From: Phycisphaerae bacterium | GTDB taxonomy: Bacteria; Planctomycetota; Phycisphaerae; UBA1845; Fen-1342 | Reading direction: 5' to 3' | Assembly: GCA_018056925.1 (NCBI GenBank) | Contig: JAGPEO010000001.1 | Coordinates: 1-43,588, forward strand | Length of the DNA: 43,588 bases | Part shown: positions 26,637 through 43,588 of the stretch, piece after piece | Layout: the number at the start of each line of letters is the position of its first letter | Numbering within the stretch: the stretch's first letter is position 1 | Notes under the pieces: model-generated | What the model saw: only the letters and a program-made list of their open reading frames with translations | Told to the model about the DNA's origin: nothing | Databases searched by the model: none | Position numbers and translations under genes: made by a program

Positions 26637-28127
26637 TCAGGTGGGCTCGGCCGCCGACTCCGCGCCGGCGGACTCATGCTTTACGCCGGTCACCTTCGCC
26701 TTCTCCAGAAGCATAGACACGGTCTTGTCCTGCCGGATTCGTTCGGCGAGCTGCGACAGCAGCCCCTGCTGCTGTAACTCGTCGCGCACGCGGTCGAACC
26801 GGCGGTTGTAACGCCGCGCCATCGCCGCGATGGCCGTGTTGACTTCCTCGTCCGTAACCTCGATTTCGAGCTTTTCCGCGGCTTTTTCTAGGATGAACCC
26901 GAGCTTCAGTTCGCGCGTTACGTCCTCTTTGGCCGAGCTGCGCAGCGCATCCGCGCGCGCCAAAACCTCGTCCTCAGGCACGCCGCGCTGCCGCAACTCG
27001 ATCATGCGCCGCACCACGGCCCGGTCAATCTGCCGGGCGGACAGCTTCTCCGGCAGCTCGAGGCTCGTCTTCTCGAGCAGGAAAGCCTCGACCTGGGCGC
27101 GCTTGGCGCGCTCGATCATCTCGTCGCGGTCGCGCTCCATCATCATGCGGAAGTGATCAAACGCGTCGGCTTCCTTGTCGAACCCGGCGCGCTGCAGGAA
27201 GTCGTCCAGCGGCATCGGCACCAGCCGCTTCAGCTCGTGAATACGGAAAGTGAACCGCCCCTTCTGACCGCGAATGTCAGCCCGCTCGTAATCATCCGGA
27301 ATCGTGCAGGTCGCCTCGCGCGTCTCGCCCGGCTTGGCGCCTTCCAACACCTTGTCCAGATCGGGCACCTGCACCCCGTCCAACGCCGCCGGACGCACGC
27401 CAAGCTGCACGTTCTCTTCAGTCTTGATCTGCTTGTCGTCCACCGTCAGAACGACATCCGCTATGACCAGGTCGCCGCGCTCGGCTCCACCCTCCGGCTG
27501 TGGCTCGAACCGTCCGCGCAGCTTGCGTTGCCGCAGTACCTCGTCCGCGACCATCTGATCGGTGATCTCGATCTCCGGCGACTTGATCTGGATGCCCTCA
27601 AGCTCCGGCAACTCGAACGTCGGCTTGACCTCGATCTCGCACACGTAGTCGAAATCGCCCTCGGCCGGCAGCTTCATGTGCTGCAGGGCCTCGTCGAACT
27701 CCATGAGCTTGACGCCCTCTTCGCCGGCGTCGATGCGGAACAGCGGCTCGCCCAGCACGTCCAGCTCGTGCTTATCGGTGACCGCGAAGTAAGACTGTCC
27801 GACGATGGAGGTCGTCAGCGATTCGCGCACCTCGCTCCCGAAGCGCTTTTCGATCAGCCGTCGCGGAGCGTGGCCCTTGCGGAAGCCGGGCACGATCGCG
27901 TCGTGGCGCAGCTCGTCGTAGTTGTGGTCGAGGTGGTCGGCGATGACCTTGGCCGGCACTGTGATGTGCAGCTCTTTGCGGAGGGTGCCGATGTCCTTGA
28001 TGTCCGCCTTGACTTCCTTCTTCAGGTCCTCAAGTAGGTGCTCCGCCTCCTTTTCCGCCTTTTCGCGAAGAACCGGATCTTCCATCGCGCCGGGTATGCC
28101 CGGCATGCCGGGTAGCTGCATGTCCAT
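26637..28127 (-). CDS. tig: Trigger factor with about 40-aa N-terminal extension
   Basis: PGFRKGHAPRRLIEKRFG ribosome-binding motif, a PPIase-like middle region, and a C-terminal helical arm. Lies upstream of clpP. Confidence 0.92.
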   Translation of the reverse strand: MDMQLPGMPGIPGAMEDPVLREKAEKEAEHLLEDLKKEVKADIKDIGTLRKELHITVPAKVIADHLDHNYDELRHDAIVPGFRKGHAPRRLIEKRFGSEVRESLTTSIVGQSYFAVTDKHELDVLGEPLFRIDAGEEGVKLMEFDEALQHMKLPAEGDFDYVCEIEVKPTFELPELEGIQIKSPEIEITDQMVADEVLRQRKLRGRFEPQPEGGAERGDLVIADVVLTVDDKQIKTEENVQLGVRPAALDGVQVPDLDKVLEGAKPGETREATCTIPDDYERADIRGQKGRFTFRIHELKRLVPMPLDDFLQRAGFDKEADAFDHFRMMMERDRDEMIERAKRAQVEAFLLEKTSLELPEKLSARQIDRAVVRRMIELRQRGVPEDEVLARADALRSSAKEDVTRELKLGFILEKAAEKLEIEVTDEEVNTAIAAMARRYNRRFDRVRDELQQQGLLSQLAERIRQDKTVSMLLEKAKVTGVKHESAGAESAAEPT

Positions 28128-29367: not shown

Positions 29368-30621
29368 ATGCAAAACGCACCCAAAGGTCTCAGGCTGCAC
29401 ATCGGCATCTTCGGCCGCCGCAACGTCGGCAAGTCATCCTTGTTGAACGCGCTCACGCGGCAGGAAGTGTCGATAGTCTCGGCCTGCGCCGGCACAACTA
29501 CCGACCCGGTCGAAAAGCCGATGGAATTGCTGCCCATCGGGCCGGTGCTGTTCATCGACACGGCCGGCGTGGACGACATCGGCGCCCTCGGGCAGCAGCG
29601 TGTTGAGCGGACGCGCCGGATTTTTGACCGCACCGACGTCGGCCTGATCGTTGCCGAGGCCGGCGAGTGGGGCGCTTTCGAAGAAGGCATTCTGAACGAA
29701 CTGGCCGGCCGGAATGTCCCGGCAATTGCGGTTTTCAACAAATGTGATTTGGCGTCGCCGTCGCCCGAGGTCCTAGCGCGGCTGAACGAACGGAAAATTC
29801 GGCACGTCCAGACGGTCGCCGGCCGTGGTGATGGACTGGCAGATTTGCGCGAAGCCCTGATCCGGTCCGCGCCAGACGACTTTGTCAACACACCGGCGAT
29901 CATCGGCGACCTTGTTCCGCCCGGCGAGCTGGCACTACTGGTCGTTCCCATCGACAAGGAAGCGCCGAAGGGGCGCCTGATCCTGCCGCAGGTGCAGACG
30001 ATTCGCGACCTGCTCGACCACGAAGCCTTCTGCATGGTTGTGAAGGAACGAGAGCTGCGCCAGGCGATTGACCGTCTGCGCCGCCCGCCGGCGCTGGTGG
30101 TGACAGATTCGCAGGCGTTCCTGAAGGTCTCGGCGGATACTCCGCTCGAGGTGCCGCTGACGTCCTTCTCTATCCTCTTCGCACGCTTCAAGGGCGACCT
30201 GACGGAGATGGTGCGCGGCGCGACCGCCATCGACCGGCTGCGACCCGGCGATCCCATCCTCATCGCCGAGGCCTGCTCGCATCACCCGATCGGCGAGGAC
30301 ATCGGCCGGGTGAAGATCCCGCGCTGGCTAACGCAGTACGTGGGCGGCGAGCTCGAATTCACTACGACTCAGGGGCACGACTTCCCGCCCGACCTGGCCG
30401 AGTACAAGCTCGTGATTCACTGCGGCGCCTGCGTCCAGAACCGGCGCGAGGTGCTTTCGCGAATCTTGAAATGCCGCCGCGCCGGCGTTCCGATCACGAA
30501 TTACGGCTTGGCGATCGCGTATTCGCTGGGCATTTTCGAGCGAGCCCTCGGGCCGTTTCCGGCCGCGCTGGAAGCCTACCGGGCGGCGCTCGCTGAGGGC
30601 GGGGGCGCGTCGCCCAGGTGA
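29368..30621 (+). CDS. hydF: [FeFe]-hydrogenase maturation GTPase HydF
   Basis: GTPase motifs GRRNVGKSS, DTAG, NKCD. C-terminal cluster motif EACSHHP ... HCGACV. Confidence 0.93.
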   Translation: MQNAPKGLRLHIGIFGRRNVGKSSLLNALTRQEVSIVSACAGTTTDPVEKPMELLPIGPVLFIDTAGVDDIGALGQQRVERTRRIFDRTDVGLIVAEAGEWGAFEEGILNELAGRNVPAIAVFNKCDLASPSPEVLARLNERKIRHVQTVAGRGDGLADLREALIRSAPDDFVNTPAIIGDLVPPGELALLVVPIDKEAPKGRLILPQVQTIRDLLDHEAFCMVVKERELRQAIDRLRRPPALVVTDSQAFLKVSADTPLEVPLTSFSILFARFKGDLTEMVRGATAIDRLRPGDPILIAEACSHHPIGEDIGRVKIPRWLTQYVGGELEFTTTQGHDFPPDLAEYKLVIHCGACVQNRREVLSRILKCRRAGVPITNYGLAIAYSLGIFERALGPFPAALEAYRAALAEGGGASPR

Positions 30622-30855: not shown

Positions 30856-31206
30856 ATGAAGCTGGCCACTTTGGCAGAGAAAATCGGAGCCCGGCTCCTG
30901 ACGCCCGGCAAGACGCTAAATGTCGCTGCCGACCAGGTTTACGCCGGTGATCGCATCAGCGATCTGCTCAATGCGGCCAGCGAGCACGTGTTGATGGTGA
31001 CCAACCTCGCCAGCGGACAGCTCACCATGATGGCCGGTCTCCTCGACGTGCCCTGCATCTGCCTGGTGAACAGCCAGATGCCCGACGAGACGATGCTCCG
31101 CAGCGCCCGCGAACACGGAACCGCCATCCTGGTTTCATCCTGCGGGCTCTTCGAAACCTGCGGCCGAATTTACCGCTGCCTTGCGGAGGAAGACCATTTG
31201 CCGTGA
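30856..31206 (+). CDS. DRTGG-domain protein (copy 1)
   Basis: 116 aa. Same length and pattern as copy 2 (VYAGDRISDLL ... LVNSQMPDETMLRSAREHGTAILVS...FETCGRIY). Confidence 0.7.
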   Translation: MKLATLAEKIGARLLTPGKTLNVAADQVYAGDRISDLLNAASEHVLMVTNLASGQLTMMAGLLDVPCICLVNSQMPDETMLRSAREHGTAILVSSCGLFETCGRIYRCLAEEDHLP

Positions 31207-32825
31207 CCTCCGTCTCGTACCAGATCGAGGGGGGCAATTACGAAACGGGTGGGGCAGCCTCGCGCCAGATTAAAGAACAACTTAAGAAAATCGGGGCGGA
31301 TCCGGCGGTTGTCAGGCGGGCCATGGTGGCCGCCTACGAAGCCGAGATGAATGTGGTAATTCACTCGCACGGGGGCGAACTGCGGGCGGAACTGGACGAG
31401 CACGAATTACGCGTCGACGTGATCGACACCGGGCCCGGCATTCCCGACGTGGAACAGGCCATGAAGCCCGGCTTCTCGACGGCTTCGGCCAAGGCCCGGG
31501 AACTGGGCTTCGGCGCGGGCATGGGCCTGCCGAATATCAAGAAAAACAGCGATCATTTCGCGATCGAATCGGCGGCCGGACGTGGCACTCGCGTCAGTTT
31601 TACGATTCACCTACGTCCGCAGGCGCTGTACGGCGCGGGGCAGTTCTCGATCCAGGTTGAAGCCGAAAAATGCCGCCGATCGCTGCATTGCCTGCGGGCT
31701 TGCCCGACGCAGGCACTGCGGGTGCTGCGGGGCAAGCCTGAGATCCTGGATTACTTGTGCATTGACTGCACCGAGTGCATTGCCGCGTGCCCAAGCGGTG
31801 CGTGGGGTCTGCGGTCCGCGGGCGAAGAGCTTAAGCCATCCCCCGGTTCCATCCTCATACTGCCTCCGGTGAGCCTGGTGCAGTTCGGGGCGGGTATTAC
31901 TGCGGGGCAAGTCCTAACTGAGCTGGCGTACCTGGGCTTCTCGGATATCCGCGTAACGGCGGCCTGGGAAAGCGCGCTACGTAAGGCCGTCATGCAATAC
32001 GCGGCCGGCGAGACGCGCGTCCGCCCTGTGATCTCACCCGTGTGCCCGGCGGTTGTGAACCTGATTCAGTTGCGCTTCCCGTCGCTGCTGCCGCACGTGG
32101 CCCCGTTTCTTTCAGCCCAAGAGGCCGCCTATGAGAGCGTGGTCGGCGAGGATCGCAGGCTGCTGTCGCTGGTACCCTGCCCGTGCCAGTTGACGATTGT
32201 GCGGTCCCGCGACAGACCGGTGGAAAAGCGGTCCCACGTTCTGGCGGTGCTGCCGGCGACGTTCGCGGCCGTGTTGCACCCGCGCCTAAAGCGGGGAACA
32301 GGCCGCTCCGCCGACACGGGGTCAACGCCGGCCGCTCCGGACCCGCTGGGCGTCTTGCGCGTGACTGGAATCCATAAAGTGCGGCAGGTTTTGGAACGGC
32401 TGGAGGACGGGCTGCTGACCGACATCACGGTAATCGAGCCGTATGCCTGTTTTGCGGGCTGTTTTGGATCGCCGCTGTTTACGGAAGTCGCCAGCGTGGC
32501 CCAATATCGCTGGGCCCTGGCGCCGGCCAAACCCGATCCGCGGGCGCGGGCGGTGCGACGCGTGGTTCCGCTGGAGCCACGGCACGGGCTGCGGCTGGAT
32601 GCGGACATGACGCGCGCCATTCAGAAGTTGGCCAGGATTGATAAACTGCGCCGCAGCCTCCCCGGCAGCAATTGCGGCAATTGTGGAGCGCCGACCTGCG
32701 CGGCACTGGCCGAGGACATTGTTCTGGGGCGTGCCCAGCTCGATGCTTGCGTGCGGCAGAGGATGGATAACGAACCGGCCGCCAAGCAGTCGCGGCCCGG
32801 GCCTCCAGCGGAGGAAAGTAAATGA
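31203..32825 (+). CDS. Fusion of an RsbW/SpoIIAB-like Ser/Thr kinase, a 2x[4Fe-4S] ferredoxin, an [FeFe]-hydrogenase H-domain-like module and an RnfB-type FeS domain
   Basis: GHKL motifs (YEAEMNVVIH, DTGPGI, GAGMGLPNIKK). CRRSLHCLRACP and CIDCTECIAACP. L1-, L2- and L3-like ISPVCPAV, VPCPCQ and EPYACFAGCFGSP. C-terminal CGNCGAPTCAALAEDI. GTGA overlap with the upstream gene. Confidence 0.8.
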   Translation: MTSVSYQIEGGNYETGGAASRQIKEQLKKIGADPAVVRRAMVAAYEAEMNVVIHSHGGELRAELDEHELRVDVIDTGPGIPDVEQAMKPGFSTASAKARELGFGAGMGLPNIKKNSDHFAIESAAGRGTRVSFTIHLRPQALYGAGQFSIQVEAEKCRRSLHCLRACPTQALRVLRGKPEILDYLCIDCTECIAACPSGAWGLRSAGEELKPSPGSILILPPVSLVQFGAGITAGQVLTELAYLGFSDIRVTAAWESALRKAVMQYAAGETRVRPVISPVCPAVVNLIQLRFPSLLPHVAPFLSAQEAAYESVVGEDRRLLSLVPCPCQLTIVRSRDRPVEKRSHVLAVLPATFAAVLHPRLKRGTGRSADTGSTPAAPDPLGVLRVTGIHKVRQVLERLEDGLLTDITVIEPYACFAGCFGSPLFTEVASVAQYRWALAPAKPDPRARAVRRVVPLEPRHGLRLDADMTRAIQKLARIDKLRRSLPGSNCGNCGAPTCAALAEDIVLGRAQLDACVRQRMDNEPAAKQSRPGPPAEESK

Positions 32826-33184
32826 CTCTCGCGGAAATCGCGGAAAGACTGGGGCTGCAAAACCTGACGCCTGAGATCAGCCCGGCCGCGGCCGACGTGA
32901 CCGGCGGATACGTCTCGGACCTGCTAAGCGATGTACTGGCGAACGCACCGAAGGGCGGCGTTCTGGTAACGGTTCAGGTGCACCTGAACGTGATCGCGGT
33001 CGCGGTCCACGCCGAACTGGCCGCCATTATCTTCGCTTCTGATCGCGTTCCGGATGACACTGTTCAGGCAAAGGCGAAGGAAGAAGGCATCGCCCTGTAC
33101 TGCTCGAAGGCTTCGGCATTTGAGGTGGTCGGGCGACTGTGGGAAATGGGCGTGCGAGGGCCGCGGCAGAGTGATACGAAGTGA
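32822..33184 (+). CDS. DRTGG-domain protein (copy 2)
   Basis: VTGGYVSDLLSDVLANA...VTVQVHLNVIAVAV...AKEEGIALY.SKASAFEVVGRLWEMG. ATGA overlap with the upstream gene. Confidence 0.8.
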   Translation: MTLAEIAERLGLQNLTPEISPAAADVTGGYVSDLLSDVLANAPKGGVLVTVQVHLNVIAVAVHAELAAIIFASDRVPDDTVQAKAKEEGIALYCSKASAFEVVGRLWEMGVRGPRQSDTK

Positions 33185-33300
33185 TACAGTGATAAAGTGA
33201 TAAGGTGATAAGGTGATAAGGATTCAGCACTCGACGCAAGTCTGCCCGCGCCGCGCCCTTATCACTCTATCACGTTATCACCTTGTCACCCTATCACGTG
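33171..33300. repeat. Octamer array with inverted counterpart (long imperfect hairpin)
   Basis: Six direct GTGATA-NN units (33171-33220). A 37-nt GC-rich spacer. Five inverted NN(N)-TATCAC units (33258-33297). AT-rich in a GC-rich operon. Confidence 0.95.
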
Positions 33301-33322
33301 CTTCGCGGCGCGAGGTGCTCCC

Positions 33323-34114
33323 TTGAAGCTCTGGGCCGCCGACCTGCATATCCATACCGCCCTGTCGCCCTGTGCGGCGGATGAGATGACGCCGCCGGCC
33401 ATCGTGCAGGCGGCCCTGGAGCGCGAGCTGTCGATGATCGCGATTTGCGATCACAACGCGGCCGGCAATGCCGAGGCCGCTGCTGCCGCCAGCCTATGTG
33501 CCGGCCGCACCGTCGCCGGTCTCAAACTGGCGGTCCTGGCGGGCATGGAAATCATGACGGCCGAGGAAGTGCACATTCTGGGCATTTTTCCGAGCCCGGC
33601 CGCGGCGGCAGCGGCCGCGAAAGAGGTGCGTGCTACTCTGCCCGAGGCCACCGTCGCGTATCACCAGAAGTTCGGGCAGCAGCTTGTAATTGATTCGGGC
33701 GGGTCGATCGTCGATTCCGAGCCGAAAATGCTGGCCATGGCTTCGGGCTTCGACCTGTCGGCGGCGGTGCGGCTGATACACCGGCATGAGGGGCTGGCGA
33801 TCGCGGCGCACGTCAACCGCCCGTCGTTCAGCGTGTTCAGCCAACTCGGCATGTTCCCGGGGGACGCCGGTTTTGACGCCATCGAGGTTTTTACGCCCTG
33901 TGGCGACGGACCCGACGCTTCGCGAGCCGAAAGCCATACGGTCGTGGCGGAGTTCTCAAAATACGGCTTACCTGTCATCGCCTCGTCGGACGCCCATTAC
34001 CTGGATGACGTGGGGTCGGTACGTTCGCGCCTGCGGTTGCGGGAGCCGAGTTTCGACGAACTGGTGATGGCCCTGCGCGGTTCATGCGGGCGGCGCGTGG
34101 TACACGATGCGTGA
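33323..34114 (+). CDS. PHP-domain metal-dependent phosphoesterase
   Basis: DLHIHTALSPC, ICDHNA, AAHVNRP, ASSDAHY. TTG start with GAGGTG upstream. Confidence 0.85.
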   Translation: MKLWAADLHIHTALSPCAADEMTPPAIVQAALERELSMIAICDHNAAGNAEAAAAASLCAGRTVAGLKLAVLAGMEIMTAEEVHILGIFPSPAAAAAAAKEVRATLPEATVAYHQKFGQQLVIDSGGSIVDSEPKMLAMASGFDLSAAVRLIHRHEGLAIAAHVNRPSFSVFSQLGMFPGDAGFDAIEVFTPCGDGPDASRAESHTVVAEFSKYGLPVIASSDAHYLDDVGSVRSRLRLREPSFDELVMALRGSCGRRVVHDA

Positions 34115-34652
34115 GTTAGCGCTGCACATTCTCGACCTGGTCGAAAACTCGATCCGGGCCAACTCGTCAGTCATAGAGGTCACGGTCGCCGCGGACCAGA
34201 CGGCCGACCGCCTGCGCATCCAGATAGATGACAACGGCCCGGGCCTGAAGGTGACGCCTCAGCAGGCCCTGGACCCCTTCTATACGACCAAGTCCGGGAA
34301 ACGCACTGGTCTGGGCCTGAGCCTGTTCAAGGCGGCCGCCGAACGGGCGGGCGGACGGCTTACTTTAGAACGCTCGGACTTGGGCGGCCTGCGGGTTTTG
34401 GCGGAGATGGGCCTGCGACACGTAGACCGCAGCCCGCTGGGGGATCTGGCGACATCGCTGGGATCGGTCGTGTGCGCGAATCCGCACATCGATTTTCACT
34501 TTCGCATAAGTCACGACGGGCACGAGACTTGCATCCGAACCTGGGAGCTGGCACATGAACTTGGCCTGCCCCCCGACGATTCAATCGCTCTGGCACGCCG
34601 CGTGATAGAGACGATCCGGACGGAACTTGAAACGGCGAGGGGACTGGCTTAA
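34107..34652 (+). CDS. Stand-alone GHKL (histidine-kinase-like) ATPase without HisKA or receiver domains
   Basis: N-box LDLVENSIRAN, G1 DDNGPGL, G2 GLGLSL. 8-nt overlap with the PHP gene. Confidence 0.8.
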   Translation: MRELALHILDLVENSIRANSSVIEVTVAADQTADRLRIQIDDNGPGLKVTPQQALDPFYTTKSGKRTGLGLSLFKAAAERAGGRLTLERSDLGGLRVLAEMGLRHVDRSPLGDLATSLGSVVCANPHIDFHFRISHDGHETCIRTWELAHELGLPPDDSIALARRVIETIRTELETARGLA

Positions 34653-34754: not shown

Positions 34755-35306
34755 ATGAGTGAGGACCGCAAAGTAGGATGCACGTGCTCGTGCGGCGAGG
34801 AAGTCTCCGAGCAGGAGTTGCTTGCCCGCCTGGACGGCGTGCTCGCCGAATATCGGGACAAGCCCGGTGCTTTGATCCCGGTGTTGCAGATGGCGCAGGG
34901 CATCTTCGGCTATCTGCCCGAGGTGGCCTTGAAGCGGATTGCGTTAGGGCTGAACAAGTCCTACAGCGAGGTAGCCGGCGTCGTCAGTTTTTATTCCTTC
35001 TTCTCGACTGTGCCGCGCGGCAAGCACCTGGTGCGGGTCTGCCTGGGTACGGCCTGCTACGTGCGCGGCGGCAAACGCGTGCTCGACACGCTCAAGCAGA
35101 AGCTGGGCATCGACGTCGGCGAAACGACGCCCGACCGCCAGTTCACGCTCGAAGTGGCACGCTGCTTCGGGGCGTGCGGGCTGGCGCCGGCCATCATGAT
35201 CGACGATGACGTCCATCACCGTGTCAAGCCCAACAAGATCGAGCTGGTCCTCGGTCCGTATCGAAACGGCGAGGCGGCCAAGGCGGAAAGGAAGGTCCCG
35301 GCATGA
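34755..35306 (+). CDS. hydC: NuoE/HydC-like [2Fe-2S] subunit of NAD(P)-linked hydrogenase
   Basis: VCLGTACYVRGG ... ARCFGACGLAPA is the thioredoxin-like 2Fe-2S motif. AGGAG Shine-Dalgarno upstream. Confidence 0.9.
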   Translation: MSEDRKVGCTCSCGEEVSEQELLARLDGVLAEYRDKPGALIPVLQMAQGIFGYLPEVALKRIALGLNKSYSEVAGVVSFYSFFSTVPRGKHLVRVCLGTACYVRGGKRVLDTLKQKLGIDVGETTPDRQFTLEVARCFGACGLAPAIMIDDDVHHRVKPNKIELVLGPYRNGEAAKAERKVPA

Positions 35307-35668
35307 CTCGCATCAACAGCCCCCAAGACCTGAAAGCCCTTCAAGAGAAAGCCAAGAAAGACATCGACCTGCGCAGCGGCCAGAAGGACATGCGCATCAC
35401 CGTCCACATGGGCACCTGCGGCATCGCCGCCGGGGCGCGCGACGTGCTGGCCGCTCTGTTGACCGAGCTGGGTCCGGCCACCGACAAAGTCACAATCACG
35501 CAGACCGGCTGCGCCGGGCTGTGCGACCAGGAACCCATGCTCACGCTCACCGATAAGGCCGGCGGTTCCTTCCGCTACGGGCGTTTGGACAAGAACAAGG
35601 TTGGCCAGATCGTGCGCGAGCACGTGTTGCGCGGCCAGCCGGTGCTGGAATACATGATTAAGTGCTAG
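35303..35668 (+). CDS. Small thioredoxin-like [2Fe-2S] ferredoxin (HndB/HydD-like)
   Basis: VHMGTCGIAAGA ... QTGCAGLCDQEP. ATGA overlap with hydC. Confidence 0.8.
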   Translation: MTRINSPQDLKALQEKAKKDIDLRSGQKDMRITVHMGTCGIAAGARDVLAALLTELGPATDKVTITQTGCAGLCDQEPMLTLTDKAGGSFRYGRLDKNKVGQIVREHVLRGQPVLEYMIKC

Positions 35669-35728
35669 TTGTCAGTGGTCAGTTTTCAGTTGTCAGTTTC
35701 AGAATGCGACGGACAACTGATGGCTGAC
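35669..35728. repeat. Heptamer array with partial inverted counterpart
   Basis: TTGTCAG TGGTCAG TTTTCAG TTGTCAG TTTCAG (35669-35702), then GACAACTGA TGGCTGAC (35712-35728). A 9-bp perfect stem pairs 35686-35694 with 35712-35720. Confidence 0.9.
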
Positions 35729-35756
35729 GCCCGGCAACTTCGGAGATCGAGCGAAC

Positions 35757-38700
35757 ATGAATAACGTCAGAAGTCACGTTCTCGTCTGCACCGGCGGCGG
35801 CTGCATTGCCTCAGGGGCCCTCGAAGTTTCCGCGGCCCTGCGCGAGCAGCTCGAGAAGCACGGCTTGCACCACGAGATCAAGGTTATCGAGTCCGGCTGC
35901 CTGGGTCCCTGTGCGGTCGGCCCGGTCGCCTCCGTCTATCCCGATGGCACGTTCTACCAGGGATTGCGGGCCGACGACGCGGAGGAAATCGTCAAAGAGC
36001 ATCTGCTCAAGGGCCGCGTGGTCGAACGCCTGGTCCACAAGACGCCGGCCGGCCAGCCCGTTTCCGGCCTGCATGAGATCGGCTTCTTCCAGAAGCAGGT
36101 CAAAATCGTGCTGCGCAACTGCGGCGTGATCGACCCGCTGCGGATCGAGGAATACATCGCCCGCGACGGCTATCAGGCCCTCGGCAAGGTCCTGACCGAG
36201 ATGACGCCCGAGCAGGTCATCGCCGAGATGAAGAAGTCCGGCCTGCGCGGCCGTGGCGGGGCCGGCTTCCCGACCGGCTTGAAGTGGGAATTCACCCGCA
36301 AGAGCAAGGGCGAGGTCAAGTACATCCTGTGCAACGGTGACGAAGGCGACCCCGGCGCATTCATGGACCGCAGCGTCCTGGAAGGCGATCCGCACAGCGT
36401 AATCGAGGGCATGGCCATCGCCGCCTACGCCATCGGCGCGCACCAGGGCTTTGCCTATATCCGTGCCGAATACCCGCTGGCGGTCGAGCGTTTCCAGCAC
36501 GCCCTCAAGCAGGCCCGCGACTGCGGCTTGCTGGGGAAGAACATCATGAACAGCGGCTTCGATTTCGATATCGAAGTCCGCATGGGTTCCGGCGCGTTCG
36601 TCTGCGGCGAGGAAACCGCCCTGATGACGAGCATCGAAGGCAACCGCGGCGAGCCGCGTCCACGGCCCCCGTTCCCGGCCGTCAAAGGCCTGTGGGACAA
36701 GCCGAGCTGCCTGAACAACGTCGAGACCTTCGCCAGCGTGCCGGTCATCATGCACAAGGGCGCCGACTGGTACGGCTCCTACGGCACCGAGAAGAGCAAG
36801 GGCACCAAAGTGTTCGCCCTGGCGGGTGCGGTCAACAACACCGGCCTGGTCGAAGTGCCCATCGGCATGCCGCTGGGCGAGATCATCCACGACATCGGCG
36901 GCGGCATTCCGGGCGGCAAGAAGTTCAAGGCGGCCCAGATGGGCGGCCCGTCCGGCGGCTGCATCCCGAAAGAGCACCTGAACGTTCCGGTCGATTACGA
37001 GTCGCTGACCGAACTGGGCGCGATCATGGGCTCCGGCGGCATGATCGTCATGGACGAGGACACGTGCATGGTGGACGTGGCCCGCTTCTTCCTGGACTTC
37101 TGCCAGGATGAGAGCTGCGGCAAGTGTCCGCCGTGCCGCGTCGGCACCAAGCGCATGCTCGAAATCGTGAGCCGCATTTGCGAAGGCCTGGGCGAGGAAG
37201 GCGACGTCGAGAAGCTGATCGAGCTGGGCCAGACCATCAAGGACACGGCCTTGTGCGGGCTGGGTCAGACCGCCCCCAACCCGGTCCTGTCCACCATTCG
37301 ATATTTCCGCGACGAGTACGACGCCCACATTCGCGAGAAGCGCTGCCCGGCCGGCGTGTGCCCGTCACTGGTGCGAGCCCCCTGCCAGAGCGCCTGCCCG
37401 GCCGGCGTGGACGTGCCCGGGTTCGTCTCGCTGGTGGGCGAAAAGCGGTACGCCGAGGCCTTGGCGCTGCATCGCAATCGCAACCCGTTCGCGTCCGTTT
37501 GCGCCCGCGTGTGCTTCCACGCCTGCGAGGACAAGTGCCGCCGCGGCAGCCTCGACGAAGCGGTCGCCATTCGCGGCGTCAAACGCTTCATGGCTGAACA
37601 GGAAGTCACGGTTCAGCTCCCCTCCGTGCAGGACAACGAGGAAAACGCCCGCCGCAAGATCGCCATCATTGGCGCCGGCCCGGCCGGCCTGTCGTGTGCG
37701 TACTTCCTGGCGCGGCTCGGCTACCGCCCGAAGGTGTTCGAGGCCGAGTCACAGCCGGGTGGCATGCTGGTGCAGGCGATTCCCGCCTACCGGCTGCCGC
37801 GGCAGGAATTGGCCCGCGAAATCCGCATGATTGAGCGGCTCGGCGTGGACATCGAGCTGAACATGCGTCTCGGCCGAGACTTCACGCTGGAGAGCCTCCG
37901 CAAGGACGGCTATGAGGCCGTGTTCCTCGCCGTCGGCGCTCCGCAAGGCTCGAAGCTGGGTATCCCCGGCGAAGAGGCCGACGGCGTGGTCGACGCCCTG
38001 CGGTTCCTCCGCGAGTACAACGTCCGCGGCACCGCCCAGGTGGGCAAGAACGTGGTCGTTATCGGCGGCGGCAATTCGGCGATCGACGCGGCTCGGACCG
38101 CAATCCGCCTGGGAGCCGAGTCGGTTACCGTGCTCTACCGCCGAACGCGTGCCGAAATGCCCGCCTTCGCCGAAGAAATTGACGAAGCCGAGCACGAAGG
38201 CGTACGGATCGCGACCCTCGTCGCCCCGCTTGAAGTCGTGCAGAAGAACGGCAAGGTCGCCGGTCTCAAGTGCCGCCACATGGTCCTGGGCGAGTTCGAC
38301 CGCAGCGGGCGTCGCCGGCCGGTCGACGGCAAAGACGAAGACTTCATCGTCCCGGCCGACATGATCATCGCCGGCATCGGACAAAAACTCGACACGGCCG
38401 AAATCTTCAACGGCCAGGCCCTGAAGGTGAATCGTTCCGGCTTCATCGCCGCGGACCGAATCACCGGGCAGACCTCAGTGCCGTGGATTTACGCCGGCGG
38501 CGATGCGGCCGTCGGACCCTGGTCGGTCGTGGGCGCCATCGCGGATGGCGAAAAAGCGGCTGTGGCGATCGACAAGATGCTCACCGGGGCCGAGCACGCC
38601 TTCTGGCGTGAGAACCAGCAGCCGGACACCGAGTTTGACCCGGACGCCGATCCGGTGCAGTACCCGCGGGCCAAGCAGGCCATGATTCCGGTGAGCAAGC

Positions 38701-38834
38701 GCAAGAACAACTTCCAGGAGGTCGAGCTGTCCTGGTCGGAGGCCGTGGCGCGGCGCGAAGCCAAGCGTTGCCTGCGGTGCGACTACCGGGCGCCGGCGGG
38801 TTCCGAAGGTAAAGTTCCGCCCTGCAAGCAGTAA
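35757..38834 (+). CDS. hydB: NuoF/HydB-like flavoprotein subunit fused to a GltD/NfnB-like FAD/NAD(P)H oxidoreductase
   Basis: N-terminal 2Fe-2S (CTGGGC...CLGPC), GLRGRGGAGFPTGLKW, CGKCPPCRVG. From about 37340, the GltD-type cluster region (APCQSACPAGVDVP, CARVCFHACEDKCRR) and two Rossmann motifs (IIGAGPAGLS, VIGGGNSAIDAA). Confidence 0.88.
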   Translation: MNNVRSHVLVCTGGGCIASGALEVSAALREQLEKHGLHHEIKVIESGCLGPCAVGPVASVYPDGTFYQGLRADDAEEIVKEHLLKGRVVERLVHKTPAGQPVSGLHEIGFFQKQVKIVLRNCGVIDPLRIEEYIARDGYQALGKVLTEMTPEQVIAEMKKSGLRGRGGAGFPTGLKWEFTRKSKGEVKYILCNGDEGDPGAFMDRSVLEGDPHSVIEGMAIAAYAIGAHQGFAYIRAEYPLAVERFQHALKQARDCGLLGKNIMNSGFDFDIEVRMGSGAFVCGEETALMTSIEGNRGEPRPRPPFPAVKGLWDKPSCLNNVETFASVPVIMHKGADWYGSYGTEKSKGTKVFALAGAVNNTGLVEVPIGMPLGEIIHDIGGGIPGGKKFKAAQMGGPSGGCIPKEHLNVPVDYESLTELGAIMGSGGMIVMDEDTCMVDVARFFLDFCQDESCGKCPPCRVGTKRMLEIVSRICEGLGEEGDVEKLIELGQTIKDTALCGLGQTAPNPVLSTIRYFRDEYDAHIREKRCPAGVCPSLVRAPCQSACPAGVDVPGFVSLVGEKRYAEALALHRNRNPFASVCARVCFHACEDKCRRGSLDEAVAIRGVKRFMAEQEVTVQLPSVQDNEENARRKIAIIGAGPAGLSCAYFLARLGYRPKVFEAESQPGGMLVQAIPAYRLPRQELAREIRMIERLGVDIELNMRLGRDFTLESLRKDGYEAVFLAVGAPQGSKLGIPGEEADGVVDALRFLREYNVRGTAQVGKNVVVIGGGNSAIDAARTAIRLGAESVTVLYRRTRAEMPAFAEEIDEAEHEGVRIATLVAPLEVVQKNGKVAGLKCRHMVLGEFDRSGRRRPVDGKDEDFIVPADMIIAGIGQKLDTAEIFNGQALKVNRSGFIAADRITGQTSVPWIYAGGDAAVGPWSVVGAIADGEKAAVAIDKMLTGAEHAFWRENQQPDTEFDPDADPVQYPRAKQAMIPVSKRKNNFQEVELSWSEAVARREAKRCLRCDYRAPAGSEGKVPPCKQ

Positions 38835-38852: not shown

Positions 38853-40664
38853 ATGCCAAAGCTTACGATTGACAACATCCCCGTCGAGGTTCCCGAGGGA
38901 ACCAGTGTCCTGGAAGCGGCCCAAAAGGCCGGCATCCGGATTCCGACGCTGTGCTATCTTAAGGACGTGCAGGCCATCGGCGCCTGCCGCGTGTGCACGG
39001 TGGAGATCAAGGGCGCCCGTACGCTCGTGGCCTCTTGCTCCCAGCCCGCGACTGAGGGCATGGAAGTAAAAACCAACACGCGCCGCGTGCGCCAGGCGCG
39101 CCGCACCGTCGTCGAGCTTCTCCTCTCCGAGCACGACGGCGACTGCCAGACCTGCAACCGCAGTGAAGACTGCGAGCTGCAGGCCGTGGCGCGTGAGCTT
39201 GGGGTTAAGGACATCACCTACCCCGGCGCCAAGGCCGCTCGCTTCCGCGACACCAGCACGCCCGCTCTGACCCGCGACACCGCCAAGTGCATCGCCTGCC
39301 GGCGTTGCGTGACGGTCTGCAACAACGTCCAGGGCGTCGCAGCCCTGTGGGCTCAGAACCGCGGGTTCAAGACCGTCATCGGTCCGGCCTTCTGCCAGAA
39401 CCTGGACGAAGTCGTGTGCGTGCAGTGCGGCCAGTGCGGGGCCGTGTGCCCGGTCGGCGCAATCACCGAGAAGGACCACATCGCGGCTGTCTGGGAAGCC
39501 TTGGATGACCCCAACAAGCACGTTGTGGTGCAGACCGCCCCTGCCATTCGCGCCGCCTTGGGCGAATGCTTCGGCTACCCGCCCGGCACGCGCGTTACCG
39601 GCAAGATGACCGCCGCCCTGCGGCGTCTCGGATTCGACGGTGTGTTCGATACGAACTTCGCCGCCGACCTGACCATCATGGAAGAGGGCACCGAGTTGCT
39701 CATGCGGCTCAAGCATGCCCTGGTCGATTCCAAGAAGGGCGGCGGCAACGGCCACAAGGACGATCATCACACGCCGGGTCCGCTGCCGATGTTCACGAGC
39801 TGCTCGCCGGGCTGGATCAAGTTCCTCGAGCACTACTACCCGGACATGACGGCGAATCTGTCCACGTGCAAGTCGCCGCAGCAGATGTTCGGCGCGGTCG
39901 CCAAGACTTACTACGCCCAGAAGATCGGCAAGAAGCCGGAAGATATCTTTGTGGCGTCGGTCATGCCTTGCACCGCCAAGAAGTACGAGTGCCAGCGGCC
40001 TGAGATGAACGACAGCGGCGTGCAGGATGTCGATGCGGTCCTGACCACTCGCGAGTTGGCTCGCATGATCAAGCAGGCCGGCATCCGCTTCGAGCAACTG
40101 CCGGATGAGAAGATGGACGCCCCGCTGGGCATCTCGACCGGCGCTGCCGACATCTTCGCCAATACCGGCGGCGTGATGGAAGCGGCCCTGAGAACCGCTT
40201 GGGAAATCGTGACCGGCAAGCCGTTGCCGTTCGAGAATCTGCACGTGCAGCCGATCGCCGGCCTCGAAGGCGTCAAGGAAGCGTCCGCAAAGATCACCGG
40301 CGCCAAGCCGGAGTGGTCGTTCCTCGAAGGCGCCGAGCTGAAGGTCGCGGTCGCCCACGGCCTGGGCAACGCCCGCAAGGTCATCGAGGCGGTCCGTAGC
40401 GGCCAGAAGCAGTATCACTTCATCGAAGTGATGACCTGCCCCGGCGGTTGCATCGGTGGCGGCGGGCAGCCGCGGCTGACGACGAACGACCACCGCCTGG
40501 CCCGCATCCGGGCGATCTACGAGGAAGACGAACATCGCGAGCTGCGCAAGAGCCACGAAAACCCGGCCGTTTTGCAGCTTTACAAGGAATTCCTCGGTCA
40601 GCCGCTAGGCGAGAAGTCGCACAAGCTGCTGCACACGAAGTACGTGGCGCGTACTAAGGTTTAA
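38853..40664 (+). CDS. hydA: [FeFe]-hydrogenase catalytic subunit, long multi-cluster form with non-canonical L1 motif
   Basis: N-terminal 2Fe-2S and F-cluster domains (CIACRRCVTVC, CVQCGQCGAVCP). L1 FTSCSPGW, L2 VMPCTAKKYE, L3 EVMTCPGGCIGGGGQP. C-terminal small-subunit-like tail. Confidence 0.92.
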   Translation: MPKLTIDNIPVEVPEGTSVLEAAQKAGIRIPTLCYLKDVQAIGACRVCTVEIKGARTLVASCSQPATEGMEVKTNTRRVRQARRTVVELLLSEHDGDCQTCNRSEDCELQAVARELGVKDITYPGAKAARFRDTSTPALTRDTAKCIACRRCVTVCNNVQGVAALWAQNRGFKTVIGPAFCQNLDEVVCVQCGQCGAVCPVGAITEKDHIAAVWEALDDPNKHVVVQTAPAIRAALGECFGYPPGTRVTGKMTAALRRLGFDGVFDTNFAADLTIMEEGTELLMRLKHALVDSKKGGGNGHKDDHHTPGPLPMFTSCSPGWIKFLEHYYPDMTANLSTCKSPQQMFGAVAKTYYAQKIGKKPEDIFVASVMPCTAKKYECQRPEMNDSGVQDVDAVLTTRELARMIKQAGIRFEQLPDEKMDAPLGISTGAADIFANTGGVMEAALRTAWEIVTGKPLPFENLHVQPIAGLEGVKEASAKITGAKPEWSFLEGAELKVAVAHGLGNARKVIEAVRSGQKQYHFIEVMTCPGGCIGGGGQPRLTTNDHRLARIRAIYEEDEHRELRKSHENPAVLQLYKEFLGQPLGEKSHKLLHTKYVARTKV

Positions 40665-40731
40665 GAAACGATTCCCATTAGATCCGAGCCCAAAGCGACA
40701 GCGAGGGCGAAGGATCAACGGTGAACAAACA

Positions 40732-40779
40732 AGCGAGGCGCCTGCCAACCTCCAGATTGGCAGGCGCCTCGCTCTTTTG
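40732..40779 (+). terminator. Rho-independent terminator of the hydrogenase operon
   Basis: Perfect 17-bp stem AGCGAGGCGCCTGCCAA / TTGGCAGGCGCCTCGCT, an 8-nt loop, then CTTTTG. Confidence 0.9.
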
Positions 40780-41950: not shown

Positions 41951-43588
41951 CTACGCCTTCGCCGGACGGGCGATGCGCAGCCCCAGCTCATCAAGCTGAT
42001 CTTGTGTGACCGGGCTGGGGGCCTCCGTCATCGGGCAGGTCGCCCGGGCCGTCTTCGGGAACGAGAACACGTCCCGAATATGGTCTCGCCCCGTCAGCAG
42101 CATGACCGTCCGGTCCAGCCCCAGCGCGATTCCGCCGTGCGGCGGCGGGCCGTACTTCAACGCCTCGAGCAGGAACCCGAACTTAAGCTGCTGTTCCTCC
42201 GGACTGAGCCGCAACAGCTTGAACACGCGCTCCTGCACGTCACGGCGATGGATACGAATACTGCCGCCGCCTAGCTCGATGCCGTTCAGCACCACGTCAT
42301 AGGCCTTGGCCCGGCACTTGGACGGCTCCTGTTCCAGCAGATCGAGGTCCTCGTCGCGCGGCGCGGTGAACGGATGATGTACCGCATAGTGCCGCCCCTC
42401 CTCCTCGTGGTACTCGAACATCGGAAAATCGACTACCCACAGGAAGTTCCACCGGCCCGCGGGGATCAGGTTCCGCTTCTGCGCGATGACCGAGCGCAGC
42501 CACGACAAGTACTTGCAAACGTTCGCCTCGGTGTCCGCGGCGAAGAAGATGATGTCGCCCACTTGCGCTTCCGTCGCCGCCATCACCTGGCTGGTCAATT
42601 CCGGCGTAAAGAACTTCGCTACGCCCGTTTGGAACACCGGCTGCCGCGCCCCGCCCTCTGCCGCCGCGACCTTCACCAGCGGCAGCCCGCCGGCGCCGAT
42701 GCCGCGCATCGCCTCGGTCAGCGTATCAGTCTCCTTGCGGGTCATGTCGGCCCCACCCGGCACGCGGATGGCCCGCACCACGCCGCCCTTGGCGAGCGCC
42801 TCGCGGAAAATGGTGAAGTCGGAACGCCCCGCGATCTCGCTGATGTCTTTGATCCGCAGGTCGTAGCGCGTATCGGGGCGGTCGATGCCGTACTCAGCCA
42901 TGGCCTGGGCGTACGACATGCGCGGAAACGGCGTAGGAATCTCTACGCCGAGCACGCTGCGCATCACGTGCGCCAGGCACCCTTCGGTTACACGCAGCAC
43001 GTCCTCCGGCTGCACGAACGACATCTCCAGGTCGAGCTGCGTGAACTCCGGCTGTCGGTCGGCTCGCAGGTCCTCGTCGCGGAAGCAGCGCACGATCTGC
43101 ATGTACCGGTCGAACCCGCTCATCATCAGCAGTTGCTTGAAGAGCTGCGGCGACTGCGGCAAGGCGTAGAAGCTGCCGATCTGCAGGCGCGACGGCACGA
43201 GAAAGTCGCGCGCCCCCTCCGGCGTGCTCTTGGTCAGAAAAGGCGTCTCGATCTCGATGAAGCCCTGCGTGTCGAGGTAATCGCGCATGGCCTTGGCGAT
43301 GCGGTGGCGCGTGATCAGCGCCTGCTGCATCGGCTTGCGGCGCAGGTCCAGATAGCGGAACCGCAGCCGCGTCTCTTCGTTCGTGTCGATCTCGTCTGCG
43401 ATTTCGAAGACCGGCGTCTTCGAGGTCGAAAGAATCTCGACCTCGCGAACGAGCACCTCAACCGCCCCGGTCTTGATCTTGGGATTGACGAGCCCCGGCG
43501 GCCGCGCCAGCACGTCGCCGCGCACGACGATGCAGTACTCGTTGCGAATCGCCTCGGCGATTTTGTGGGCCTGCGGGTTGGTTTCCGG
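41951..43588 (-). CDS. aspS: Aspartyl-tRNA synthetase, N-terminus beyond the window edge
   Basis: FRDEDLRADRQPEFTQLDLEMSF and GGIALGLDR class II motifs. The frame stays open to position 43588. Confidence 0.95.
   Translation of the reverse strand, partial: PETNPQAHKIAEAIRNEYCIVVRGDVLARPPGLVNPKIKTGAVEVLVREVEILSTSKTPVFEIADEIDTNEETRLRFRYLDLRRKPMQQALITRHRIAKAMRDYLDTQGFIEIETPFLTKSTPEGARDFLVPSRLQIGSFYALPQSPQLFKQLLMMSGFDRYMQIVRCFRDEDLRADRQPEFTQLDLEMSFVQPEDVLRVTEGCLAHVMRSVLGVEIPTPFPRMSYAQAMAEYGIDRPDTRYDLRIKDISEIAGRSDFTIFREALAKGGVVRAIRVPGGADMTRKETDTLTEAMRGIGAGGLPLVKVAAAEGGARQPVFQTGVAKFFTPELTSQVMAATEAQVGDIIFFAADTEANVCKYLSWLRSVIAQKRNLIPAGRWNFLWVVDFPMFEYHEEEGRHYAVHHPFTAPRDEDLDLLEQEPSKCRAKAYDVVLNGIELGGGSIRIHRRDVQERVFKLLRLSPEEQQLKFGFLLEALKYGPPPHGGIALGLDRTVMLLTGRDHIRDVFSFPKTARATCPMTEAPSPVTQDQLDELGLRIARPAKA

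Follow-up and report, generated by a model that had tools for sequence, protein, structure and literature searches.

Hydrogenases of the HydABC type are the model for non-canonical electron bifurcation, that is, bifurcation at a flavin mononucleotide (FMN)-FeS site, and to our knowledge, ferredoxin is the low-potential outlet in every characterised case. This work concerns a 43,588-nucleotide stretch of DNA from a Phycisphaerae bacterium (GenBank assembly GCA_018056925.1, contig JAGPEO010000001.1, positions 1 to 43,588 of the forward strand; hereafter the window), in which a single open reading frame (ORF) of 1025 codons at 35757-38834 (+ strand), hydB::gltD, joins a HydB/BfuB flavoprotein subunit of an [FeFe]-hydrogenase to a GltD-type module. 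We tentatively propose that the low-potential branch of the predicted enzyme ends in NADP(H) instead of ferredoxin.

The closest described system is known from genomes. Zheng and Huang (2024, mSystems; PMC11406978) described the fusion, in Planctomycetota among others, as "sub-type I BfuABC(D)", in which the B3/B4 domain of BfuB is replaced by DPD_II (Fer4_20) and a C-terminal flavin adenine dinucleotide (FAD)/NAD(P) domain, and which is encoded with bfuC, an optional bfuD and bfuA. They reported it in Hydrogenedentota, Planctomycetota, Spirochaetota, Verrucomicrobiota and other phyla, and called for biochemical work on it (PMC11406978). The cultured strains Syntrophus gentianae DSM 8423 and Desulfotignum balticum DSM 7044 are listed there as carriers of distant sub-type I homologues. 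NfnL-like domains were also noted in proteins annotated as FeFe hydrogenase group A (PMC12018979). In a full-text literature search neither enzymology nor a solved structure of the fusion variant was found; the variant is not mentioned in Losey 2020, in the Nfn review or in the bioRxiv preprint on syntrophic acetate-oxidising bacteria, and the words fusion, fused and GltD are absent from Schut 2022. An earlier note on this DNA, made from the sequence alone, had known of no characterised enzyme with this covalent fusion, which agrees with the search, although the fusion itself had already been published from genomes in 2024 (PMC11406978). By gene content and domain order, the present locus is assigned to this already described, biochemically uncharacterised sub-type I BfuABC(D) of group A3. 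The window is therefore a further instance of a variant already flagged, and the question it raises is enzymological rather than genomic and, given the sequence evidence, open to sharp experimental tests. What is new beyond the 2024 genome description is the assignment of the GltD module to the StnC/Nfn-BfuA type, the B2 ligands beside the junction, the portability of the fused subunit and the clusters of relatives with degenerate FMN motifs.

Results

Two complete modules in one subunit

Residues 1-540 of the fusion protein form a complete HydB/BfuB module and residues 541-1025 a complete GltD-type module. Pfam matches run in order through 2Fe-2S_thioredx (residues 5-81), Complex1_51K (158-329, E 1e-46), SLBB (353-401), NADH_4Fe-4S (440-524, E 3e-34), Fer4_20 (534-617, E 6e-19) and Pyr_redox_2 (634-931, E 3e-36). 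Among the NCBIfam models, nuoF_fam covers residues 126-525 (E 6e-154), several GltD-type models (GltD, AegA, YgfK and DPD-type) cover about 493-1010 and PRK12771 matches 493-1008, and the GltD-specific equivalog models all stay far under their cut-offs (e.g. TIGR01318, 294 versus 483 bits). The earlier note had described a HydB/NuoF module followed by a complete module of the GltD/NfnB superfamily in the place of the ferredoxin domain, and Pfam, NCBIfam, phmmer and Foldseek agree on this architecture. Every motif it quoted is located in the ORF, namely GRGGAGFPTGLKW at residues 165-177, CGKCPPC at 454-460, APCQSACPAGVDVP...CARVCFHACEDKCRR at 541-596, IIGAGPAGLS at 636-645 and VIGGGNSAIDAA at 768-779. 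Its placing of the junction at about nucleotide 37340 needs a small correction: the fusion is present, and the homology switches from HydB to GltD slightly downstream, at residue 540/541 (nucleotides ~37374-37379).

The HydB half and the junction

In sequence order on the + strand, the HydB half starts with an N-terminal thioredoxin-like [2Fe-2S] domain carrying the B5 site C11/C16/C48/C52 (35757-36035; Pfam residues 5-81), and continues with the NuoF core, which holds the FMN/NAD(H) site, the SLBB domain and the B1 (N3) [4Fe-4S] ligands C454/C457/C460/C500 (36132-37331; supported by nuoF_fam, PDB matches and Foldseek, TMt 0.75-0.85). Its top match is the Acetomicrobium mobile NiFe-Bfu BfuB (7t2r_B, 813 bits), followed by the Acetobacterium woodii HydB (7q4v_B, 803 bits; 61% identity across the shared part), both of which are proven bifurcating subunits. 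Homology to these two subunits is ungapped through ...YFRDEYDAH524IREKRC530PAGVC535PSLV540, which includes the H524-x5-C530-x4-C535 element (37326-37361). Together with C437 and C475, the residues of this element make up the ligand set of five at the B2 [2Fe-2S]/Zn site, as they align without gaps with C438, C476, H525, C531 and C536, the B2 ligands of A. mobile BfuB (PMC9304861). The B2-site His is missing in non-bifurcating homologues (PMC9304861). Among the 120 best homologues of the fusion protein, the five B2 ligands are kept in 119-120 and the four B5 cysteines in 118-119, and the B1 cysteines are conserved as well.

Alignments detect no ferredoxin-domain (B3/B4) homology after residue 540, and StnC-type homology begins at residue 541; as judged from these alignments, the canonical B3/B4 ferredoxin domain is cleanly excised from the fusion subunit. 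C535, the last B2 ligand, and C543, with which the cysteines of the GltD module begin, are just 8 residues apart, and this spacing suggests that the B2 site and the first GltD cluster lie close together. The FMN/NAD(H), B1 and C1 sites were read from the motif GRGGAGFPTGLKW, from C454/C457/C460/C500 and from the four cysteines of HydC, respectively. Thus, the flavoprotein subunit is predicted to keep the whole bifurcating core, consisting of the FMN/NAD(H) site, B1, the B2 ligands and the N-terminal B5 domain.

The GltD half belongs to the StnC/Nfn-BfuA type

The GltD half begins with two [4Fe-4S] sites carrying C543/C547/C582/C586/C590/C594 and Lys609 (37377-37607, Fer4_20), followed by the FAD and NADP(H) Rossmann domains with GAGPAG at 639-644, GGGNSA at 770-775 and YRR at 794-796 (37656-38549, Pyr_redox_2), and ends in a tail that alignments identify as the permuted counterpart of the NfnB/GltD N-terminus (38679-38783), all on the + strand. 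Its placement is based on a phmmer bit-score ranking against all PDB sequences and on two shared derived characters, a permutation and a lysine ligand. In the ranking, the C-terminal half scores best with NfnA of Caldicellulosiruptor saccharolyticus (Csac; 9bov_A, 409 bits), followed by Sporomusa ovata StnC (8oh5_C, 349 bits), NfnA of Thermococcus sibiricus (Tsib; 9n5u_A, 340 bits), Thermotoga maritima NfnB (4ylf_B, 296 bits), Pyrococcus furiosus NfnL (5jca_L, 279 bits) and GltD (2vdc_G, 194 bits). The comparison with the Sporomusa Stn enzyme that the earlier note had drawn was therefore apt, and the relationship is closer than had been thought.

Regarding the permutation, the C-terminal half aligns from R541APC543QSAC547PA... 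onward with residue 101 onward of both StnC and Csac NfnA, and its tail at 975-1009 (...KRKNNFQEVELSWSEAVARREAKRC1005LRC1008D) can be aligned as far as residue 567 of Csac NfnA and residue 568 of StnC. The same tail also matches residues 13-43 of T. maritima NfnB (...EAQRCLQC), a match that is weak alone (i-E 3.1) but shows, on inspection by eye, identity at about half of its ~31 positions. On these alignments, the order of the GltD module is a circular permutation of that in NfnB/GltD, just like the order in StnC/Nfn-BfuA. Regarding the ligand, the non-cysteine ligand position of the FAD-proximal [4Fe-4S] cluster is occupied by Lys609 (VKRF), which aligns with K170 of StnC and K165 of Tsib NfnA, whereas NfnB/NfnL has a Glu there (LERF in T. 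maritima NfnB). Lys609 and the eight module cysteines (including C1005 and C1008) are invariant in 120 of 120 close homologues, and the GAGPAG motif, the GxGxxA motif at 770-775 and the YRR motif at 794-796 in 119-120. Across diverse related loci, wherever it is readable, the ligand position holds Lys in all but two, which have His, and never Glu. The GxGxxA and YRR motifs match those of the NADPH-using StnC and NfnB.

Because the score ranking, the permutation and the Lys ligand agree, the fused module is classified by sequence with StnC/Nfn-BfuA rather than with NfnB. Structural and mutagenesis work on StnC and Tsib NfnA has shown that their FAD is a port for NADPH that does not bifurcate and from which electrons leave along one path (PMC10482914, PMC12018979). 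By analogy, the C-terminal module would work like that of StnC, and its assignment is therefore evidence against a second bifurcating flavin.

An AlphaFold2 (AF2) model of the fusion protein was of moderate quality (pLDDT 78, pTM 0.65, with residues 280-430 poor) and served solely to confirm the two folds. In Foldseek searches, its N-terminal half matched HydB/BfuB chains (TMt 0.71-0.85), and its C-terminal half matched Csac NfnA, StnC and NfnL (rmsd 2.6-4.0), the match to P. furiosus NfnL (5jca_L) having TMt 0.78 and rmsd 2.6. No PDB chain spanning both halves was found by Foldseek, the highest TMq being 0.47.

Spread of the fusion and portability of the fused subunit

The 120 best homologues from a 5.8-billion-protein collection are fusions of 997-1052 amino acids with 72-100% identity, save one entry of 896 amino acids, and the named close homologues derive from metagenome-assembled genomes (MAGs) of Phycisphaerae/Planctomycetota, Hydrogenedentes and Abyssobacteria. 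When species-representative genomes were scanned with a junction-centred alignment, at least 80 loci were obtained. Among the loci listed, about 75 from many phyla carry the HydB half directly in frame with the GltD half, and six (L076-L081) are ordinary Stn/Nfn-Bfu operons that are clearly separable. The spacing of the junction signature H-x5-C-x4-C-x7-C-x3-CP stays constant down to 49% identity. The fusion gene is followed by a full HydA in about 30 of the loci listed, and in about 22 by a BfuA that shares just the N-terminal ferredoxin part. Gene neighbourhoods indicate that the fused BfuB is a portable unit, which also occurs with Fdh-like and GltB-like partners.

Several of these loci differ from the one in the window. 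In a Desulfobacteraceae MAG (L042:9622-12549), a fused BfuB::GltD without a hydrogenase is followed by a BfuA of the molybdopterin formate dehydrogenase (Fdh) type. In an Aminicenantales MAG (L057:9587-11922) and a Promethearchaeota Loki_b31 MAG (L052:9581-13273), the fused subunit, again without a hydrogenase, is followed by a 230-amino-acid Fer2_4/Fer4 protein and then by a Glu_synthase-domain (GltB-like) protein of ~525 amino acids, after which a glutamate dehydrogenase gene comes next in the archaeal L052; this arrangement may represent a Bfu-type glutamate-synthase-like enzyme. In L018:9581-13483, and also in L030, L032 and L080, the fusion gene and hydA are separated by genes for a second HydC (153 amino acids) and a short HydB (548 amino acids) that has no ferredoxin domain at its C-terminus, giving two NuoE/NuoF pairs per hydrogenase.

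A search of representatives at 50% identity, in which the fusions are not directly countable, returned only 2-3 clusters with an intact FMN motif and many NuoF-like::GltD clusters with degenerate FMN motifs. The latter include 36-43%-identical fusions with a degenerate FMN/NADH glycine motif (P0129, P0130, P0133, P0139, P0145, P0172, P0176 and P0232), and several such clusters have an extra C-terminal Cys-rich 2x[4Fe-4S]-like extension past the RCxxC tail. Stand-alone GltD-type proteins with a HydB-derived start were also present (P0198 and P0254, 519-527 amino acids; P0203 and P0224, ~650 amino acids), the start being either the last ~45 HydB residues (LCGLGQTAPNPV...H-x5-C-x4-C) or the whole NADH_4Fe-4S domain. 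These proteins correspond to the PRK12771 match over residues 493-1008 of the fusion, and the tail of HydB may move with the GltD module as one piece.

The operon and its neighbours

The fusion gene lies in an operon with the order hydC-hydD-hydB::gltD-hydA, and is its sole NuoF-type gene. All four subunits of the [FeFe]-hydrogenase that the earlier note had described, HydC, an HndB-like protein, the fusion and HydA, are identified. The catalytic subunit gene hydA/bfuA (38853-40664, +) encodes an M3-type protein with Fer2_4, NADH-G_4Fe-4S_3, Fer4, Fe_hyd_lg_C (E 3e-97) and Fe_hyd_SSU domains, and its H-cluster motifs P1-P3 are intact (TSCSPGW, MPCTAKK and MTCPGGCIGGGGQP). The NuoE-like hydC/bfuC (34755-35306, +; 2Fe-2S_thioredx, E 5e-48) carries the C1 [2Fe-2S] site (VCLGTAC, RCFGAC) and precedes the fusion gene in almost every related locus that is complete; its product opens with an unusual Cys-rich N-terminus, MSEDRKVGCTCSCGEE (34755-34800), before the NuoE-like domain. 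The hydD/bfuD gene (35303-35668, +) encodes a small HndB-like thioredoxin-type [2Fe-2S] protein (partial 2Fe-2S_thioredx match, E 1.5e-6), which is found in L001, L004, L012, L013 and L074 and absent in L002 and L005-L011. The Pfam scan of the operon genes found no NfnA/NfnS-like gene (FAD plus [2Fe-2S]), no Glu_synthase-domain or gltB-like gene is present among the operon genes scanned, and no nfnAB genes occur among the larger ORFs scanned in the window.

Between hydD and hydB::gltD, an 88-nucleotide spacer with GTCAGT-like repeats is predicted to form a long hairpin (35663-35753, +; -36.5 kcal/mol, z -2.8, 0 of 200 shuffles as stable). The hairpin is not conserved, as the two genes are just ~5 nucleotides apart in the Abyssobacteria locus L001, whose operon is otherwise identical gene for gene from the sensor-like gene described below through hydA. 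A perfect 20-bp palindrome 67 nucleotides past the hydA stop (40731-40774, no strand assigned; 20 pairs, 13 GC in a scan for terminator-like elements) likely closes the operon as a terminator.

Upstream of hydC lies a block of four genes (31203-34652, all +). The first (31203-32825) encodes a sensor-like protein with HATPase_c, 2x[4Fe-4S], a partial H-cluster domain and an FeS domain by Pfam, a putative regulatory group C-type hydrogenase; it fits the HATPase-bearing group C1 proteins that occur beside A3 hydrogenases (PMC11406978). It is followed by an ORF of 120 amino acids (32822-33184) with no Pfam match and a conserved position, a 117-amino-acid gene standing at the equivalent place in L001, by a PHP-domain protein gene (33323-34114; PHP, PHP_C) and by a gene for a HATPase_c protein (34107-34652) that is kept in homologous operons. 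The block travels with the operon across phyla, the sensor-like gene and the PHP-domain gene each being found upstream in L001, L004, L012 and L074, and is weaker in Syntrophales loci; presumably it is an H2- or redox-sensing regulatory unit. Further upstream, hydF (29368-30621, +; HydF_tetramer, HydF_dimer, MMR_HSR1) encodes the [FeFe]-hydrogenase maturation GTPase. In the rest of the window, the minus strand of 1-28200 carries housekeeping genes, namely SecY (1470-2867), MreC (12965-13840), MreB (13986-15038), a sigma-54 response regulator (19920-21284) and trigger factor (26637-28127); a glycosyltransferase (17106-18161, +) and AspRS (41951-43525, -) were also identified.

Discussion

Because the bifurcating core of the subunit appears intact while the B3/B4 outlet is replaced by a [4Fe-4S]/FAD/NADP(H) module, we favour, tentatively and at a little under even confidence, a reading in which NADP(H) takes over the terminal role of ferredoxin in the low-potential branch, with bifurcation at the FMN core and the FAD acting as NADP(H) port. 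The B3/B4 domain, normally the low-potential wire to ferredoxin, would have been swapped for a StnC/Nfn-BfuA-type module. First, H2 would be oxidised at HydA, and electrons would pass to the FMN via the HydA clusters and B1. Upon splitting at the B1-FMN-C1 site, for which HydC supplies C1, the high-potential pair would exit the FMN as NADH, and the low-potential electrons would travel singly to the two GltD clusters, through C1 and perhaps also B2, gather on the FAD and reduce NADP+. The FAD would thus be a two-electron collector and NADP(H) port, not a second bifurcation site, and a four-electron cycle would yield exactly one NADH and one NADPH, by the net reversible reaction 2 H2 + NAD+ + NADP+ = NADH + NADPH + 2 H+, with no ferredoxin involved. 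The conservation of the operon across phyla, the intact HydA and the closeness of the N-terminal half to proven bifurcating subunits all favour this reading, and the similar idea of the earlier note, that the enzyme couples H2 with both NADH and NADPH or uses NADPH in place of ferredoxin, is plausible.

The most likely direction in a Planctomycetota-like cell that ferments would be the reverse one, with the enzyme venting NADH and NADPH as H2 at low H2 pressure, and at the low H2 of syntrophic sediments it could vent both nucleotide pools with no need for reduced ferredoxin. The cellular E' of NADPH is about -380 mV. For NADH, PMC9304861 gives about -280 mV. The mean of the two, -330 mV, would by our estimate equal the H+/H2 couple near 100-200 Pa H2. 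If so, the enzyme would exploit the ~100 mV physiological gap between the NAD and NADP pools, combining a hydrogenase with a transhydrogenase.

Several points weigh against this proposal. The nucleotide specificity of both sites was read from motifs only, and the substrate use, stoichiometry and coupling given above are inferred likewise. In the Nfn-Bfu structures from Csac and Tsib, the B2 site is occupied by Zn rather than by a cluster, so that a relay through B2 is uncertain. Ferredoxin might dock elsewhere, for example at the GltD clusters as in NfnB, at HydA or at HydD. The AF2 model gives no reliable inter-domain geometry or cofactor distances. Finally, a possible second bifurcating FAD has been proposed for sub-type I (PMC11406978), a view weighed below.

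An uncoupled dual-cofactor hydrogenase, in which one wire leads from H2 to either FMN/NAD+ or FAD/NADP+ without energetic coupling, is unlikely but the alternative to be taken most seriously. Such a hydrogenase would reduce NAD(P) or oxidise NAD(P)H, with either of two ports to serve for the nucleotide. HydABC enzymes without B3/B4 are non-bifurcating, as in Syntrophomonas wolfei and Syntrophus aciditrophicus (PMC7311640), and the fusion protein likewise has no B3/B4; moreover, the midpoint potentials of NADPH and NADH are identical, so the chemistry does not demand coupling. However, the fusion keeps the B2 His/Cys ligands and the B5 domain, features that track with bifurcating members, its best matches are proven bifurcating BfuB/HydB subunits, and its module is placed exactly at the position of the low-potential outlet.

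The suggestion of Zheng and Huang (2024; PMC11406978) implies two bifurcation centres, the FAD of the GltD module bifurcating as in NfnB/NfnL beside the FMN-FeS site; NADPH would then be split at the FAD, the HydB core receiving one electron and ferredoxin, or some other partner, the second. The module does belong to the superfamily of the bifurcating NfnB and NfnL (Foldseek TMt 0.78-0.81, besides the phmmer scores of 296 and 279 bits), it shows local NfnB likeness in DVPGF and in an extra Cys in VCARVC, and the additional [2Fe-2S] domains of HydD and B5 could in principle be a second outlet. An Arg near flavin N5 is also present (R679 in IPAYRLP), but it occurs in the non-bifurcating StnC too and is hence non-discriminating. 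Against two centres stand the proximal-cluster ligand, which is Lys and not the Glu of NfnB/NfnL, the non-bifurcating, single-exit FAD entry port of the nearest relatives StnC and Nfn-BfuA, and the operon's lack of an NfnA/NfnS-like partner with FAD and [2Fe-2S]. An NfnB-like bifurcating FAD in the fused module is thus less likely, and we regard two centres as decidedly improbable.

That the GltD module serves a GltB-like subunit, polysulfide or another small oxidant, as reported for SudA/Nso-type relatives, has very little probability in our judgement. GltD-type modules do serve many enzymes, as the matching GltD, AegA, YgfK and DPD-type models illustrate, and the fused subunit has a Glu_synthase-domain protein as its neighbour in L052 and L057 and an Fdh-type BfuA in L042. 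However, such a partner takes the BfuA position and does not replace NADP(H), HydA is the only adjoining catalytic partner in the window and in ~30 related loci, the operon has no gltB-like gene, and the invariant NADPH-type GxGxxA and YRR motifs argue for pyridine-nucleotide binding. An artefact in which a frameshift, a missed stop or an assembly error joins two separate genes, a possibility that the earlier note had raised for the region near 37330, is ruled out for practical purposes, as the 120 best homologues all have full or almost full length and ~75 independent assemblies from many phyla have the halves contiguous in frame with a constant junction signature.

Should the NADP(H)-for-ferredoxin reading hold, the enzyme would be the first of the Bfu type with a pyridine nucleotide at the end of its low-potential branch, a ferredoxin-independent enzyme with obligate H2/NAD+/NADP+ coupling that is widespread in uncultured anaerobes and whose fused subunit is re-used with formate-dehydrogenase-like and GltB-like partners; that whole picture is possible, yet we hold it with real doubt. 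Such a natural variant would test whether the bifurcating core drives, or is driven by, a two-electron nucleotide couple, and it would alter the models of H2 thresholds and NADPH balance for uncultured fermenters among the Planctomycetota, Hydrogenedentota, Spirochaetota, Syntrophales and Bacteroidota. Genome surveys now annotate such genes as NuoF or count them as ordinary bifurcating A3 hydrogenases.

Comparison with known systems

Compared with NfnB/NfnL and GltD, the C-terminal half shares the fold and the predicted cofactor set (two [4Fe-4S], FAD and an NADPH site), but the order of the first cysteine pair is permuted and the similarity is lower (296, 279 and 194 bits). Membership in NfnAB/NfnSL is rejected by the Lys (VKRF) in place of Glu (LERF) and by the lack of an NfnA-like gene in the operon, and membership in the GltD of glutamate synthase by the lack of a Glu_synthase gene among the operon genes scanned, the permuted order and the sub-cut-off scores of the GltD models.

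With the HydABC/HndABCD enzymes of T. maritima, A. woodii, Thermoanaerobacter kivui and Solidesulfovibrio fructosivorans, the locus shares the NuoE-like, small 2Fe-2S, NuoF-like and M3 HydA proteins, together with the FMN/NADH site, B1 and the B2-site and B5 ligands. Unlike theirs, the present NuoF-like subunit is without the C-terminal 2x[4Fe-4S] domain at which the ferredoxin site is formed, and has ~485 additional residues that are predicted to hold FAD, an NADP(H) site and two different [4Fe-4S] sites. The wider Bfu family (PMC9304861) bifurcates electrons among NAD(H), ferredoxin and a third substrate and has FMN/NAD(H) and B1 in BfuB and C1 in BfuC, sites that are predicted from the present sequences too, and it also has the B2 ligands including the His that the present subunit keeps. 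The minimal B1-FMN-C1 flavobicluster is the bifurcation site in Bfu enzymes according to the 2025 structures. By the 2022 definition of six invariant BfuBC clusters, however, the present enzyme is an atypical member, as B3/B4 are missing.

The sub-type I BfuABC(D) architecture is identical to that seen here, with Fer4_20 and Pyr_redox_2 following NADH_4Fe-4S, and so is the encoding with bfuC and with a bfuA having H-cluster motifs P1-P3. Two differences are that the present locus carries bfuD, whereas most Planctomycetota homologues of sub-type I do not (PMC11406978), and that, unlike the published proposal, the Lys ligand and the StnC-type permutation point to a non-bifurcating NADP(H) port.

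The Stn/Nfn-Bfu enzymes (8oh5, 9bov, 9n5u) share with the present locus a BfuBC-type core and the GltD sub-type with its permutation, Lys, GxGxxA and YRR. Canonical membership in this group is ruled out, as the GltD module is in a different subunit and the true Stn-type loci L076-L081 differ. In those enzymes, the module lies inside BfuA (StnC) after an N-terminal [2Fe-2S] domain, on the mid-potential input branch and without an H-cluster, and BfuB keeps B3/B4 and reduces ferredoxin, whereas in the present locus the module sits on BfuB in place of B3/B4, and BfuA is, by its intact H-cluster motifs, a true hydrogenase.

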